Assembly (NCBI GenBank): GCA_051047955.1
Contig: JBPGPT010000003.1
Coordinates: 806,001-839,066 of the forward strand
Length of the DNA: 33,066 nucleotides
Reading direction: 5' to 3'
Source: Cystobasidiomycetes sp. EMM_F5
Taxonomy: Eukaryota
Under the pieces are notes generated by a model. The model did not search any database. It was not told the DNA's origin and saw only the letters and a program-made list of their open reading frames with translations. Positions 21,988-31,220 of this stretch are shown here, piece by piece. Position numbers and translations under genes: made by a program. Each line of letters begins with the position of its first letter. The stretch's first letter is position 1.

Positions 21988-24500
21988 ATGCACTCCCCAA
22001 TCCTGGACAACACCGCACCCAGTATTGTTGCACTACCTGAACCGTACTGGGCATCCAAACCATCTGTAACGGCTATAAAACCAGAGTGCGAATCTGTTCC
22101 AGAGGGCGGTATCGCTAAGAAAAACCTGCTGAATAGGGAGTATTACTAGATTCGTGCTATGGAACGAGGTGCAGAGGTCACACCTCGGTACAAGCGCACC
22201 GTTGTCCACTCCCGTTGATTTTGACGACGAGGCCGAAAGTCGAACAGGACCTAGTGCTAATGGTACACTGGCTGCCCAGCCTCGCGGGAGCGCGCAGGAA
22301 CCTCCGCGAAAGCGAGTCAAGGGCTCCAATAAAGGACGTCAATTTGCCCGTATGCAAGACGAAGGTGTCAAGCTGTGTTTTTCTACCGGAAAGGGCGAAG
22401 CGTGCGCCAAACAGGCTCGAGGTGAGGAGTGTCTCAATAGCCACGACTTGAAGAAGTACCTCAACGAGAACAAAGATGAAGATATAAGCGTCGACGTTCG
22501 CAAACCCTCGGAGCACGAAGACGCCGTGCAATGCAGAGTAAGCCCAATAACATTCTCGGCCTCCAGTGCTCATTGCTTTCTACATCCTCTCGCAGTTGTT
22601 CGACGCACTTGGAATGTGTCCATTTGGCTATCGTTGCCGTTTCATGAAGGCTCATCTCGAGACGCTTCCGGAAGGAACTGGGTTTCAAGGCCTGGGCCTG
22701 CAAATGCGGATTGACTATGCAAAATTGCGCTCCGTAGCACCACTGTCATCACGGGAAGCAGTCACTGATGCAGATCTCGTTCAATGGGCCTACGAAACGC
22801 GAGGCGAATTGAACGTAGTGACGCAAGACCGTATCGCCAGAATACGCCGAGAAAAGTTTGACAGCCTACCGATCACTCGGGCTTACTTGGGCAGTATCAA
22901 TGAGCCGCTCGATACGAGGGCCGACCCGGGATCTTTCAACCGAGGAAAGGGGCGTGGCCGAGGCGGTCGAGGTCGCGGACGAGGCGGAGCTCCTCGACCC
23001 AGTCGCGAATCGGATTCAGTCACGTTAGCAACCACTTCAGATACCCTCATCGGACAAACAGACGAGCATCAACAAGATGCTCAGCCATCAGAGCATTTCG
23101 CTCAAGTGATTGAGGGGAACAGTAGCTCACCACTCGAGGCAGTCTACGAGACTGTCGCATCTCCAGATGACCCCGATGTCCAGCTAAGGCACTTGGAAAA
23201 ACGGCGCCTGCGCTTTGAGGGTGGCATGTATCTAGCCCCGTTGACCACTGTCGGGAATCTGCCTTTCCGAAGGCTTTGCACACAGTACGGAGCCGATATC
23301 ACCTGCGGTGAGATGGGTCTCTCGCAGGAGTATATGGTTGGTAATAAGGGCGAATGGTCATTAGTACGACGCCATCCAAGCGAACGCACATTCGGCATCC
23401 AGGTATGCGGCAGTCGACCTCAGACTATGGTCGCAGCAACCGAAATGCTACAGCGCGAATGCCCATCCCTTGATTTCATCGATGTGAATCTTGGATGTCC
23501 CATAGACCTCGTTGTGCGCAAGGGCGGTGGATCCGCGCTTCTGGATCACTCCGCCAAACTCGGTAGAATCTTGAAGGGCATGAGCTATGCATCGGGTGAC
23601 ACACCTATAACTATCAAGATGCGTACCGGCGTTAAAACCGGTGTCAACACCACGCATAAACAAATGCCGAAAGTTGTCCGTGAATGGGGCGTAGGTGCGG
23701 TCACGGTAAGCTTTAAGTACCGAGCTTTAATGTGTGTACTGCTAAAACTTTGTGACACTTTAGATACATGGCCGAACACAACAACAAAGATACTCGAAGT
23801 CTGCTGACTATGACTACATCAAAACATGCGTAGATACGCTCCGCCAGACTGCGGAGGAAATAGACGTTCCTTCGATTCCTATCTTCGGCAACGGCGACGC
23901 GTACGATTATAGAGAGTATTGGCAGCATGTCGAGGAAACCGGAGTGGATGGAATCATGGTCGCTCGCGGCGCTCTCATTAAACCCTGGATATTTACCGAG
24001 CTGAAGGAGCGACGCGACATTGACATTTCATCTCGGGAACGCTTGGATATGATTGGCCAATTGGCCAGCTACGGGCTCGAACACTGGGGTAGCGACACTG
24101 CCGGTCTCAACACTGCCCGTCGGTTTCTTTGCGAGTCCCTGTCCTTCATGCATCGCTACGTTCCGGTTGGATTACTCGAGCGACTTCCTGCCAGAATGAA
24201 TGATCGCCCGTATCCATATCGAGGAAGGAATGAGCTAGAAGTACGTTGCGCAGTGCTTCGTAAGCTGCCGTACAGGTGCTTACCATTGATTTTCTGTCAT
24301 TGCCATGACTAGACACTACTGGCCAGTGATAATTCAGAAGATTGGGTGAAGATCAGCTCAATGTTCCTTGGGCCCCCTCGTGAGCGATGTGGATCACCGA
24401 TTTTCTTCCCGCATGTTGACTTTGCGCTTCAGCTGTCGAATTCTCGTTCATTCCGAAACACAAGGCAAATGCAATAGGCAAGGAGGAAAGCAATGGCTAG
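21988..24500 (+). CDS. DUS3: tRNA-dihydrouridine(47) synthase 3, multi-exon
   Basis: AIKPEF N-terminal motif; two CCCH-like fingers; [66 protein letters not shown]-terminal [13 protein letters not shown]. Confidence 0.97.
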
Positions 24501-24541: not shown

Positions 24542-26393
24542 TCATGAGGAGAGTGCGCCATAATCAGGAGGCGGTCTCAGGCTGTTTGACTGCTCTGCCA
24601 GTGAACGTGTTTCCATGGGCGGTATGCTCACCAATTTGATGGGAATGGAAACCAGTCGATCCTGCACGCGATTGATGTTACTACTGCTGACCAGGTTGCA
24701 TACAAGCCAATACTAAAGTCGTATCAGCTTTATCCACCTTGCTGTTGAAAAGCCTTACCGTTACGTTCACAATGTGAGTGTGGAAGGTCACGCTCGGGGC
24801 CGAGCGGAGCTTCATGCTGCCCTTGAGCTGGAGGGCGTTGGTATCCGATCTTTCAGGATCTAAAATCGTGATGCCATGTGCAACGGCAATTTCCTGCGAT
24901 CCCACTGCACCCTGAGCAGCTGACAGAGACTTTGAGATCTACCGTTGCTTGTGCGGATCAAACATCTAACATACTTGCACGGGTCCTCTGGAGCAGTAGT
25001 ACGGATATGTTTTCAGGACCAAACAAGACCAGGGTACTAGGTGCGGCTGCAATCTGGATGTAATAAGGCAACGTTTCGATTTCTACCACAGATATAAGTC
25101 TGCAGAGCGTAACAAGCCCGGGATAAATTGTCTCACTGCCGAATACGCTGGGCTTTGGGATGAGGATTCTGAAACTGTAATTTGCTTGCTTATTCCCGAA
25201 AAGACCACTTTTCAGTATCTTGTTCTCCGAGATCTGTTGCCAAGAGTCGCCTGCGTCATTCGGAGCCGCTAGATTGCCATCACACAGGATCGCGTGGCGT
25301 CGTGGCTCAGAAAGAAACGACAGGCTAAGCTGTCGCGGCAAATATATAATTGGGGCAAGCAGGCGTTCATTAGACTTCAAAAGTCCTCTTCGTGCAAGGG
25401 TGACTTTGACCACACTGGTATAGCATTAGCTTGATTGCTGGAGCATCTGCCAGTCGGCATGTCACATACTATCGAATCGAAGCCGAGAATACCCCGCCAA
25501 CCGTCACATTTTCCGCCGATGCGAAGCTGGGCGGCATAGCGACTAGCACGATGCTTGTCAGTACTACAAAACTCTGGATTAGCGCCTGCCAACCCACCGG
25601 TCTGTGGTAGCCTTGCTGAGGGTGAAGTTTCTTCAGGGATCGTGACGGTGAATGGGAAGACACATTCTTGCGATTGCTGAGCTGTCAGTGCTTCGCTAGC
25701 TGTCCAGAGGGTTACAGAATCCTGCCAGAATTCGACTGAACAATCGTCAAATCCGATTGCGCTCGACTTGGGGGATATGGTCGTTTGCGCAGACTGCTGT
25801 AGCTCACCTTCGTCCGAAATGACTTTGTACACTTGACCGCGTTGCGGTCGTAGGACATGTGTGGTCATCAGCCCTACGGTCTGGGAATTTTAGCGCATCT
25901 CGATTCTACAGACTGCTAGACATTCACCCATGACCCGCAAGCGGAGACTCTCAGCCGATTTTTCATACCCCTGTAAACGTAACACGACTTTGCCGGAAAT
26001 AGTGGAACATGCCGATTGTACGTAGATAGGATGGCTGCGTGATCCTAAGCTGTCGAGAAGGAGTTCAAGCCTTTTATTCGGACTGTCGATTGCGTGGCGA
26101 TACTTCTGAATGAGACCGGCATCTCGAGGAGCGTAATGGGGCAGAGACTCTGTAGAATTAACAAGCGAGCTCGTTCCTCGAAGAGCGAAGCCTGGATTGA
26201 TTCCTGTCGAGCTCGAAAAACGCGATTCGAACGTGGTGCCAACACCTTCGTTTAATAGAGTGGCAGCGGCGTCAGCGGTCGCAGGACGGAGTTCCGAAGA
26301 AACGGTGCGCAAGCTGTATGACTGTGTGATGTGCGATGGAGCTGGTCCAAGTTCGCGATAAGTACCGCCTCGTGGTGGTGGTAATAGACTCAT
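24542..26393 (-). CDS. Alpha-arrestin / arrestin-related trafficking adaptor, multi-exon
   Basis: TISGKVVL..SLRLRVMG; FPFTVTIP; MPPSF; SIRYVVKVTLARRGLLKSNERL; PY motifs LPHY (N-terminal) and PPDY (C-terminal, just before TGA at 24544-24542). Confidence 0.82.
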
Positions 26394-26692
26394 CACGGCA
26401 AGGCGCCGGCGTTATATTCGCTGATATGGAGCAGCCAGGACGGTCATTCTTTTGAGAGGTTGTGTCAGGTTTGCATCCAATGTCATAAATGTGTCAAGCT
26501 TTTCATGAAATGCTTGCACGCTGCACTGACAGCTGCATAGGGGCTGATCGCGCGCGACACCGTGACCAATTCATACGTATGATGTATCGTATATAATTGC
26601 TGCAATTACAACCGGCCAGTACAAGCGTCATCACAAGATTCTAGAGACAATGTTATAATCTGGATGTGACAATCATGACACTACAGCGGCAC

Positions 26693-28291
26693 TCAGAAAA
26701 ACAGGATGGTACGTATCTCGCAACTTTCGCGCATAGGCGCCTCTGGAGACGATGTTGGATCGATGAACGCTGTATGACCCACAAACCTCGCCGTTCCGTC
26801 AGTAGCGCTATCGTATGTCTTCAAGAGAATCACTTGATCTGGCTTCATCCTGGGAAAGTAGTACCATTTCTGCGATTCGGAATACCTCAAGACATAGTTT
26901 TCTCCTATTCGGTCACGATAGTGGAGATAGAGTTTCAAAAAGTCGGCATCTGGAGAGCTGGTAGCATCGCACATCGCAAGCGGGCGTTCCTCCACGACTC
27001 TCCGAATCGGTTTCCAGACGTTGATAAAAGCGGCTCGGGCCTTGAGTAACTCTTCAGCTTCGTCGCCCAGTAACTGTCTGATGCGAGTCGGTCCAGATTC
27101 TGCTGTGTAATCGCAGTGCACCAGAAGTACGGGGCTTCTCTGGGTTGTATCCGTTTCCTGTGTGAGCTTTTTGACCTCGTTGCGGGCTGCTCGTATAGTA
27201 TGGTCGAAAACGAGGACCCGCCTAGCGCCTGTTGCTGCTTTAAGGAACTGGACGACTTCTGGGTAGAAGTGGGCCTTTACTTTTTCTACGCTCTCCCAAT
27301 CGTCGAACTTCGTTGCAAAGTTCTTCAAAGCGAAGCCTTCCCTATCTACCGAAAAATTCGCTGCTTGTGGCCAGCCATTGTGAATTGTCTGTTGTACGGC
27401 GTGGTCACCGGGTGCTCGCACTTTATCGGCTTTGGGATCGTCGTAGAAGTACAGAGTCGGTGGATCATCTATTATGTCTTTGGTGTAATTAAAGACGGCT
27501 TGCACTGAGTCGCTGTTACCAAAGTGTGGCCCGTTGCCTGCTGATATAATCGATATGGGTATATCAGCGGCAAAAGGCCTGTTACAGTCTGGCACAAGGC
27601 ACATCACGTCCTGTAGAGTATCGGTCCAGGCTTTGATATTTTCCATTTCCTCTTTCTGCCAGCGGAGAAGATGTGGATAGGTCTGCAATGGGAGTTTGCT
27701 TTCGGCATACAGATGCATAGGAGCAGCTACGGCAATGTCTGCGATAGTGACATGGTTGCCTGTGAGGAATCTTCTGCCGGCAAGCTGATCATCAAGAATC
27801 TTGCATAATCGATGCATCCGCGGAGCTTCACCTTCGACAATAGATTGGTCAGGCTGGGCTTTCAATAGAGGCTTGACAACGTGTTCGACCAGGTAGACGT
27901 AGCATGATGCAAACCAAACCGAAGACTCCCATAAAAGCCACCTGTTCACTTGGGCTCTAGCTAGTAGATCTTTGGGATAGAAAGCCTCGTCATTTTGTAG
28001 ATCAGCAGCGTATTGCAGGATTGCGTTGGACTCGGTGATTGCCTGTTGATCTCCTGGAATGATTGCGAACGGGAGTGTGGCACACGGGTTCAACTTGACG
28101 TATTCTTGCTTTTTCTGCTCGGCGGTGAAATAATCGACCTTGACCAATTCGTATGGCACTTGCATCATCTGTAGACCACCCAATACCTTGTGACTGCAGG
28201 AATCTCAATCGCCAATGGGAGATGACGGAAAGCAGCGCACATACCAATTAACGGTACATGGATCGTCGTAGACTATCATTTTCTGGGACAT
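26693..28291 (-). CDS. Fusion of glutathione S-transferase (N and C domains) and AsaB/CmcJ/NvfI-like Fe(II)/2-oxoglutarate oxygenase, 515 aa; exons 28291-28245, 28193-26693
   Basis: GST part: MSQKMIVYDDPCTVNCHKVL, LNPCATLP, ITESNAILQY, FLTGNHVTIADIA. Oxygenase part: SVDREGF, FYPEV, VFDHTIR, VHCDYT, FINVWKPI, PLAMCDA, WYYFPRM, GHTAFIDP, RESCEIR. The two domains are joined in a stop-free 1.5-kb stretch. Confidence 0.9.
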
Positions 28292-29039: not shown

Positions 29040-31220
29040 CTAAGTGCGATAGAACCAGTCTTGACGAAGTGGCATGGGTGTATAACTGAAGCCATACGGA
29101 TAGCCATACTCCTGAGGCAACATTTGAGCGCCATGCCAATCTTGGTCGTATGAGCCCTCGGGTGGAGGAATTTGGCTGAAGACCAATGGGTGAGGCTGAA
29201 AGTAAGTGGTGCCGTTGATTTCTTGTGGTTCGTAAGCTGTATAGGAGGAGCTATGTGTGGAAATAAATACAGGCGGTATCGATGAGAGACTGCTCGGGGC
29301 GATGGACCGATCGCGATCATGAGGGGAATACGGAGGAGAATCGTAGGGCTGGATGAGGCCGGATGGCATATTTCTCAATGCTTGAGCGGACTGGAGACCA
29401 TACAGCGGAGAAAGCACACTGCTGGTCGCGCCATACCGAAGAGCCGCACAGGGGTTTCCAGCGGGTAATCCGGATTTGTGGGAAGGCTGACGAAGTAGTT
29501 GAGACTGTTCAGACACGTTGAGAAGAGAGATATTATCGCGACTCGGCAGGTCTATGGTAGGTGTGCTGCTGCTGCCATACAGAGCATTCATTGGCTGGAT
29601 GCCCGAATTCGGATGGGAGTACTTGGCAACGTTACGGGACAGAGCCTCGAAATGATGAGCCAACGTAGAAGGCGAGGGCGCTTCGCTCGAGTACGCAAGC
29701 GGAAATGCCGGTACAATACTCTCTGACGCTTGAACAACTGTTACTGCATCAGGATGCGCCAAAAGTAGCTCACGTGCAGTGACATCTGCAGTCTCTTCGA
29801 CCTGGATGGCTGCTGGAGCAGACAAATTCCTTGAGAGAGGGGGTCGAGCGACCGATACTTCGGCAGTACTGTGTTGATGGACAATAGATTGTACCGCAGG
29901 TGCACGGAAGGCCTGCGCACGATGCACGTTAACTGCAATATCGGGAGCAGGCGCCCAAGACGGCGCGGGACGTATGGACGATGTTGACCTGCGCTGGGAG
30001 GCGAGATCCAGTGACAGCGATAATTCAACGACACCACATTTTTGACGGTACTTCCATCTAGATGTTCCGTTCCGAGAAAGTTTACCCAGACCAGGAAGGG
30101 GGCGGAACGATATGCGCAAAGTCATGACGGCTGTGGCGGAGCGCAACAGCGTATCAAATCTTGACAACGTGCGCGATCCGGGCTCATTGTACAGCTCCCG
30201 CAAGTCACTGCTAGCCGTGCTAGCAAATGCGGCCGACAAACCGTGAAGAGCGGTACATTCAGAATGTGGAACTTTCCGAGCCTCAGCCTGCCCGATAGAG
30301 TGATCTGAGCCGTTTCTCTCTCGGTTGACACCACCAATGCACGATCTTATTGTATCTTGTGCCTCGTAGGTCGTCTTGGAAACAGTAAGCCCTGACTCTA
30401 GAATTTGAGGGTTGAGTGTAGATTGTGATCTATATGCGACAGCAGTGTCGTCATTGTCATCATCCTCGTACCATGCCGAAGTCGAGGGCGTCTCGCTAGA
30501 GACAGCAGCAGATGCTGAAGTGGAAGCTCGGCTGGTAAATGTGAGTGCTCTGGAGCTAGATCGAGAAGACGACTGAGCAGATGGCGAACACTCCAGTTGT
30601 GTGAAATTTCCCCGGGATTCTTCACGAGCTGACAATGACGTTGCGCCGGTGGAACGGGCATGATGGATTGAACCAGTGACACCGGCATGGCTGCGTCCGT
30701 GCAGGGGTTGTTCGGCAGGCTTGATTTGTCGATCTTGTGCATTTTCGGCGACGGCTTCTGCCTTGACAAGCCTCCGCCTCTGATTCTTGAGCTGCCGTTT
30801 CAGACGCTTGTGTTCTGCCTTCTTGTCTGGTTCAAAAGCGCTGGTAATTGTAGTGTTTGCCACATCAATGGGTTGCGCACTCTGGTGCTGGCAGATGATG
30901 GAAACAGATGAGCGGCCAAATACGGTCAATATGAATGAGCGTTCTCCCACCACAAGTTTTACCGACGGAGCGACGCTTGTCCCTTGAGCACTCGCTACAT
31001 CCCTTTGCAATCTGCCAGTGGCGCTGGTCGATTCGGTAGGTGCGCCAGACAAGACGCTGTCATGTGTACTGACGCGGTCATCGACAGCCTTGATCTTTGT
31101 ATGCTGAGCTTGTTGCTGCTGCTGCTGCTGAATGAACTTGTACTTTGGCAGCCAGACTCGTTTCGCCTTCTTTCCTACAGGTTGCTGATTCGACGTAAAC
31201 TGAGTGGGTTGCTGGCTCAT
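29040..31220 (-). CDS. Low-complexity hypothetical protein (about 700 aa), probably with an in-frame 75-nt intron at 30888-30962
   Basis: 726-codon ORF with polyQ, a basic helix (KRLKRQLKNQRRR), S-rich linkers and a P/Y/Q-rich C-terminus. No family recognised. Confidence 0.75.
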   Translation of the reverse strand: MSQQPTQFTSNQQPVGKKAKRVWLPKYKFIQQQQQQQAQHTKIKAVDDRVSTHDSVLSGAPTESTSATGRLQRDVASAQGTSVAPSVKLVVGERSFILTVFGRSSVSIICQHQSAQPIDVANTTITSAFEPDKKAEHKRLKRQLKNQRRRLVKAEAVAENAQDRQIKPAEQPLHGRSHAGVTGSIHHARSTGATSLSAREESRGNFTQLECSPSAQSSSRSSSRALTFTSRASTSASAAVSSETPSTSAWYEDDDNDDTAVAYRSQSTLNPQILESGLTVSKTTYEAQDTIRSCIGGVNRERNGSDHSIGQAEARKVPHSECTALHGLSAAFASTASSDLRELYNEPGSRTLSRFDTLLRSATAVMTLRISFRPLPGLGKLSRNGTSRWKYRQKCGVVELSLSLDLASQRRSTSSIRPAPSWAPAPDIAVNVHRAQAFRAPAVQSIVHQHSTAEVSVARPPLSRNLSAPAAIQVEETADVTARELLLAHPDAVTVVQASESIVPAFPLAYSSEAPSPSTLAHHFEALSRNVAKYSHPNSGIQPMNALYGSSSTPTIDLPSRDNISLLNVSEQSQLLRQPSHKSGLPAGNPCAALRYGATSSVLSPLYGLQSAQALRNMPSGLIQPYDSPPYSPHDRDRSIAPSSLSSIPPVFISTHSSSYTAYEPQEINGTTYFQPHPLVFSQIPPPEGSYDQDWHGAQMLPQEYGYPYGFSYTPMPLRQDWFYRT

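Follow-up and report, generated by a model that had tools for sequence, protein, structure and literature searches.

Isoprene IsoH/I/J and lignin LigD/E/F/G are catabolic modules that combine a glutathione transferase (GST) with a short-chain dehydrogenase (SDR). In these systems, glutathione serves as a temporary carrier and the SDR acts on or before the conjugate, as in the enzyme pair proposed below, whereas their GSTs belong to other classes and they contain no CmcJ/NvfI oxygenase. Fe(II)/2-oxoglutarate (Fe/2OG) oxygenases of the AsaB-like family, also labeled CmcJ/NvfI/EfuI (NCBIfam NF041278, Pfam PF27522, and IPR044053), are described in a preprint as hydroxylases and as oxidases that contract rings; they share an HxD/E...H triad and one invariant Arg, and the members treated there act on natural-product carbon skeletons, not on thioethers (bioRxiv 10.1101/2021.10.26.465875).

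Here, we analyzed a 33,066-nucleotide stretch of DNA from the yeast Cystobasidiomycetes sp. EMM_F5 (the window), in which a single gene joins a GST to an oxygenase of this family. The oxygenase half shares its fold (target-normalized TM, 0.79 to 0.88), the HxD...H triad, and the C-terminal Arg with NvfI (PDB 7de2, 7emz, and 7enb) and CTB9 (7eus, 7eut, and 7euu), but is only 23 to 27% identical to them, is fused to a GST with no backbone synthase found nearby, and, unlike them, falls in a bacterial/fungal subclade defined by GST linkage. The GST half has the GST_N plus GST_C fold of phi GSTs (maize GST III, 1aw9, and GST I, 1axd; poplar GSTF), from which it differs in a Thr replacing Ser, in an identity of 18 to 26% to solved GSTs, and in the attached C-terminal oxygenase; by score, this domain is about as close to insect epsilon/delta and human theta GSTs as to phi.

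Gene model and predicted domains

The fusion gene, like all of its features given below, lies on the minus strand and runs from an ATG at position 28291 to a stop codon at 26693, encoding 515 residues after removal of a 51-nt intron; a second ATG at 28279 fits the starts of homologues more closely. The DNA of the window is fungal and its introns are short, and intron 1 (28194..28244, GTATGT...CTGCAG), placed from splice signals and homologue alignment, splits codon 16 and contains the sole in-frame stop, which interrupts the 5' end of the unspliced reading. Exon 1 (28245..28291), delimited by the homologue consensus, carries the start codon and the GST N-terminal motif (Cys12, Thr13, and Asn15), and splicing yields DPCTVNC, in agreement with the consensus DPCTVNSRK. 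Exon 2 (26693..28193) comprises the remaining GST, the linker, the oxygenase, and the stop codon in a reading frame without an internal stop. The two halves are thus joined in frame, as an earlier note on this DNA had stated, the stop at the 5' end being intronic.

A candidate second intron of 45 nt (27541..27585), with a weak donor (GTAACA) and a branch-like CTGAT, is in frame and stop-free, so that the fusion would be kept whether it is spliced or retained; three weaker donors upstream of 27585 use the same acceptor, and splicing there would shift the frame. An intron-motif scan of the window returned 36 matches against a shuffle mean of 28, which is not clearly above the shuffles, and the scan therefore cannot score this linker intron. 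By our own measure, the linker length is 50 and that of homologues is 27 to 70 (median, 42; n = 107), compatible with the 45-nt intron being present or absent. In an AlphaFold model built on a 120-row alignment (mean pLDDT, 91.4; pTM, 0.60), both domains are confident and the sole low-confidence stretch is the linker (exon-2 residues 204 to 225), whose predicted flexible core (27518..27583; pLDDT under 50) varies in length and sequence among homologues. A complex prediction for a bacterial GST dimer with its oxygenase, run without alignments, scored 0.00 and is not evidence either way.

Profile analysis placed GST_N, GST_C, and CmcJ/NvfI above their cut-offs, giving the domain architecture that had been read from the translation. 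The predicted Fe/2OG oxygenase domain (26696..27508) was delimited with NF041278, PF27522, and Foldseek; the NF041278 match scores 261 bits (cut-off, 80) and covers profile positions 2 to 263 of 263, confirming that the domain is complete, and PF27522 was found on homologues of the fusion protein. In Foldseek, NvfI/CTB9 folds occupied ranks 1 to 10 (E = 2e-26), followed by delta, phi, and theta GSTs. Alignment to NvfI and CTB9, together with conservation, identified His375-x-Asp377 (27110..27118), within the HCDYT motif (27118-27104), as predicted iron ligands, and alignment and conservation likewise the distal His489 of GHTAF (26774..26776). The presumed 2-oxoglutarate-binding Arg lies on the RESCEIR strand (26711..26731), which bears Arg504 and Arg510 and was assigned from conservation and as a family feature, its last Arg being at 26711-26713. 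None of His375, Asp377, His489, Arg504, and Arg510 varies among the 120 rows of the fusion alignment, and the HxD, distal His, and C-terminal Arg singled out in the earlier note are therefore all retained. Judged by profile match, facial triad with Arg, and modeled fold, the domain is a CmcJ/NvfI (AsaB-like) family member. Two more distant family loci (33 to 39% identity) occur in the same genome, at G000:C24:261377-262006 and G000:C188:612773-613000.

The GST domain (27596..28291) is phi-like by Pfam, Foldseek, and comparison with bacterial orthologues, and its GST_N plus GST_C composition with cis-Pro and ESxAI motifs is that of a cytosolic GST. A bacterial orthologue matches maize GST III with E = 3e-27, its best solved matches being phi class, and through this orthologue Thr13 can be matched to the catalytic Ser in the SPN motif of the maize enzyme. 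Among the 119 homologues listed, the motif was found in 114, all with the Thr and the Asn; bacterial orthologues carry Thr (20/25) or Ser (5/25) at the catalytic position. Cys12 is present in 109/114 fungal motifs versus 5/25 bacterial ones (Ile instead in 19/25), and Cys16 in 22/114 fungal motifs (Ser instead in 92/114). Because Thr and Asn are constant and both cysteines vary, the window GST is of the hydroxyl type and not a Cys-GST. The cysteines of DPCTVNC, previously noted near the catalytic position, are indeed restored by splicing, but they flank that position, which Thr occupies. The Cys-GST classes (omega, beta, lambda, and GHR) are ruled out by this Thr, and a Nu-class/Ure2pA glutathione lyase was rejected on the grounds of a T-V/I-N rather than TPN motif, 27% identity to a TPNG-type GST, and PRK11752 and PRK13972 scores below cut-off.

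Pfam-matched neighbors of the fusion gene encode NOX-like, BIR, Ktr mannosyltransferase, THOC7, TAF5, DUS3, and class-III aminotransferase proteins. Among named organisms, DUS3 is matched best by Cystobasidium minutum, at 400 bits against 296 for the runner-up, which agrees with an origin of the DNA in a Cystobasidiomycetes-like basidiomycete yeast. No polyketide synthase, nonribosomal peptide synthetase, or terpene synthase was found among the 14 window open reading frames (ORFs) scanned with Pfam, which are housekeeping genes or without a match, in line with the earlier statement that the window holds no backbone synthase; the fusion gene is outside any secondary-metabolite cluster. Flanking ORFs without a Pfam match (24958-26396 and 29040-31220) include three short ones downstream and one of 726 amino acids and low complexity upstream.

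Distribution and origin of the fusion and the bacterial gene pair

A homologue search yielded 779 proteins at E ≤ 1e-10 among 8,000 scored candidates, of which 120, including the window's own, were listed. Both domains were detected with a strict motif pattern in 115 of the 119 homologues listed (54 to 65% identity), and the 27 named ones are all ascomycetes, namely lichens, black yeasts, Dothideomycetes, Leotiomycetes, and one member of the Hypocreales. The fusion is widespread in ascomycetes, with both domains from known families, and its supposed rarity is thereby set aside. The earlier note had weighed a common, already characterized architecture against its reading: the architecture is common, but our literature search, with most subscription journals outside its coverage, found no published characterization of the fusion or of the gene pair, in accordance with the view that the pathway is not known as characterized; nor do the accessible parts of a study of Exophiala GSTs (PMC4401685) mention such a fusion. 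Stand-alone fungal matches of 250 to 300 amino acids were rejected as split forms, several of the 12 examined beginning within the linker or GST and looking like exon or contig fragments, and the longer models, which add an ATP-grasp or FSH1 domain to the fusion, seem to be merged adjacent genes. With the whole fusion protein as query, the ESM Atlas gave no usable match.

The window protein clusters with five relatives (support, 99/96) and is placed among ascomycetes. An ascomycete grouping appeared in 0/200 bootstrap trees, and its monophyly was not rejected by the AU test (p-AU = 0.203); the tree thus suggests transfer of the fusion gene from an ascomycete to a basidiomycete without establishing it. 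For the copy in this basidiomycete yeast (window positions 26693-28291 versus 22566-23807), the named relatives are all ascomycetes.

In bacteria, homologues of the two halves are mostly separate genes and, as the earlier note had proposed checking, they proved to be neighbors. Across 401 genomes of the proteobacterial order of genome G029, close GST places (E ≤ 1e-70) numbered 32 in 31 genomes and close oxygenase places (E ≤ 1e-80) 23 in 22 genomes; 22 of the latter lie within 1.1 kb of an orthologous GST place, and the remaining one is cut by a contig end. The 22 pairs, one of which is in an unpublished genome (G675) on which no conclusion rests, comprise 7 tandem, 9 head-to-head, and 1 convergent arrangement as well as 5 with a gap of about 0.8 to 1.05 kb, the gap being an SDR gene in all 4 of these 5 that were examined. 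Nine of the other 10 close GST places were examined (the tenth is at a contig edge): 2 pair with an oxygenase of 32% identity and a different SDR, and 7 have no oxygenase within 1.5 kb. The GST was found in 6/126 genomes of the order of G276, always with a tandem oxygenase (6/6), and in 13/401 genomes of the class of G058, all 13 of which have a family oxygenase somewhere; in 7 it belongs to a more distant subclade and is no more than 0.9 kb away, and 6 lack an adjacent one. In the phylum of an alphaproteobacterial bin (401 genomes), 20 genomes matched the oxygenase, and in the two that stood out (50 to 52% identity) the orthologous GST gene immediately precedes it, so that the order is that of the fungal domains. 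Related genomes make these counts non-independent, whereas altered layouts and swapped partners are independent, and the same GST pairs with more than one oxygenase subclade. The 7 close loci and 6/13 G058-class loci without an adjacent oxygenase indicate that the GST can also occur apart from it.

A divergent LysR regulator was present in 10/38 loci, which fits an inducible catabolic module, where such a regulator is expected. Beyond SDRs, LysR, and lineage-specific flanking genes, no neighbor recurs widely beside the bacterial pair, and no recurring synthase was seen there. In two head-to-head loci, an RraA/HMG-aldolase-family gene follows the oxygenase (L107:5091-5780 and L110:2598-3287). 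Four loci (L116 to L119) place the same GST clade beside an SDR and an acyl-CoA dehydrogenase, some with a CoA transferase and a dehydratase-like gene and none with an adjacent oxygenase, and one GST match (G1243:C158:42623-43234) falls within an open frame of 1,491 codons, which may represent a larger fusion in bacteria. When plasmids were searched with the GST domain, none of the 30 records listed, of 722, exceeded about 33% identity, and a single-query scan of genome contigs gave only two loci, with no GST among their ORFs listed.

Quick trees placed the fungal oxygenases in one clade (support, 100), nested in the GST-linked bacterial clade (99), with tandem and GST-SDR-oxygenase loci nearest to them (99 and 97); in one oxygenase tree, the other-bacterial set was subsampled after four of its rows had been omitted. 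Fungal GSTs likewise form one clade (100) within the bacterial set, with weak inner support. These quick trees suggest that a tandem pair of bacterial genes probably gave rise to the fungal gene by fusion.

Searching representatives at 50% identity brought to light another type of fusion, with a different GST and a separate oxygenase clade (96). The GST comes first in P0571 from the haptophyte alga Prymnesium parvum and the oxygenase first in P0476/P0584 and P0537; these Prymnesium-type fusions are predicted gene models that recur in distinct sources. Their GSTs are 49% identical to each other and 26% identical to the window GST over 160 residues, and their oxygenase clade stands in a loose sister relationship (93) to the distant bacterial oxygenases found paired with the window-type GST. 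The Prymnesium-type GST (P0571, P0476/P0584, and P0537) also carries an HSNNAAR motif.

Bacterial gene neighborhood together with independent fusions ties the two halves functionally, as the earlier note had supposed, and the genomic evidence for GST-oxygenase coupling is strong.

Candidate reactions of the enzyme pair

From these comparisons, we infer that the GST and the oxygenase act sequentially on one intermediate. Our tentative preference is for a two-step, glutathione-carried oxidation. The phi-like GST would form a conjugate of glutathione with an alkyl donor or small electrophile, or bind a ready-made S-alkyl-glutathione; the oxygenase would then hydroxylate the carbon adjoining the sulfur of this conjugate, and breakdown of the resulting hemithioacetal would yield a carbonyl compound (aldehyde or ketone) and release glutathione. 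That a thioether hydroxylated next to its sulfur releases the thiol is established chemistry. The adjacent SDR of many bacteria might take over the carbonyl or the hemithioacetal, and the net role would be housekeeping detoxification or catabolism with glutathione recycling rather than natural-product tailoring. With mostly separate genes in bacteria and a flexible linker in the fungal model, a tunnel would be unnecessary; the tether may raise the local concentration. A wider version, which we consider quite doubtful, would make this a cross-kingdom system of glutathione repair and recycling, in which the Fe/2OG enzyme would dealkylate S-alkylated glutathione in an AlkB-like manner and alkylating agents (methyl halides, methyl donors, and small epoxides) would become aldehydes with glutathione as catalytic carrier, assembled at least twice as a fusion (fungi and algae) and present as a gene pair in proteobacteria.

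The reverse order is the next most plausible, although somewhat doubtful: the oxygenase would desaturate, epoxidize, or hydroxylate a hydrophobic plant, algal, or lichen compound, the SDR may give a ketone, and the GST would capture or cleave the product. Such an order would account for the SDR recurring next to the pair, and in lignin beta-ether cleavage an SDR (LigD) precedes the GSTs (LigE/F). The GST is, moreover, closest to phi-class conjugating enzymes, the linkage evidence is compatible to an equal degree, and AsaB-like enzymes hydroxylate and rearrange carbon skeletons (bioRxiv 10.1101/2021.10.26.465875). However, the identity between proteobacteria and fungi (50 to 54% for the oxygenase and 48 to 57% for the GST) points to a single small substrate that has stayed fixed, and not to a variety of xenobiotics, and neither transporter nor ring-cleavage genes recur beside the bacterial pair.

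Sulfur scavenging, in which the pair would release sulfur from a thioether, sulfonate, or sulfate ester and hand it over in the form of a persulfide or glutathione adduct, is unlikely, although sister-group oxygenases (about 40% identity) do adjoin organosulfur genes. All four informative plasmid loci of this group are among organosulfur-scavenging genes (two further loci were uninformative), and in 11 genome loci, with 35 of 82 ORFs scanned, the sulfur context was clear in 3, doubtful in 2, and absent in 6; the neighbors encode SsuA/SsuC, SfnB-like, SfnG/SsuD-like, TauD, CysB, MetQ, and encapsulin cysteine desulfurase proteins. This context hints at carbon-sulfur chemistry, an indirect point in favor of the GST-first reading, and one sister-group oxygenase even has a Nu-type GST directly downstream, but that GST belongs to a different class, at 27% identity. 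Sulfur-starvation genes never recur beside the GST-linked clade, so the hint rests on the sister group; their absence argues against plain sulfur scavenging and leaves the oxygenase-first order close behind the GST-first one. On a Variovorax plasmid (L008:7635-14551), a CmcJ/NvfI oxygenase gene lies in a run with genes for a PLP aminotransferase, rhodanese, serine acetyltransferase, and family 2A encapsulin with cysteine desulfurase, a context that suggests a sulfur-mobilizing role for that distant clade.

Very unlikely is a role in peroxide handling, in which the oxygenase would form a hydro- or endoperoxide (compare NvfI) or leak reactive oxygen and the GST would reduce the peroxide with glutathione. 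The endoperoxidase NvfI is, with CTB9, the closest solved fold, phi GSTs can have peroxidase activity, and Cys12 is frequent in fungi; yet identity to NvfI is only 23 to 25%, other family members function without a GST, and Ile mostly replaces Cys12 in bacterial orthologues. Least likely of all are co-regulated but chemically independent stress enzymes whose fusion is an accident inherited from a transferred operon: one transfer of a tandem pair accounts for all fungal copies, the modeled linker is flexible, one gene model shows a fungal relative of the oxygenase fused to an amino-acid permease, and Prymnesium-type oxygenases also occur fused to a tautomerase domain (P0498), but the pairing survives four layouts, swaps of oxygenase-subclade partner, and a separate fusion, seen in both orders, to a GST of another family.

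The GST and oxygenase described here constitute a conserved, apparently unstudied enzyme pair, which databases label only "glutathione S-transferase" or "methyltransferase" and which should be easy to assay, since it exists both as separate bacterial genes and as a single fungal protein. It offers a handle on the role of the many stand-alone bacterial CmcJ/NvfI proteins outside natural-product clusters. Should the oxygenase act on glutathione conjugates, as in the GST-first reading that we tentatively prefer, the pair would represent a new route to recover glutathione from thioethers.
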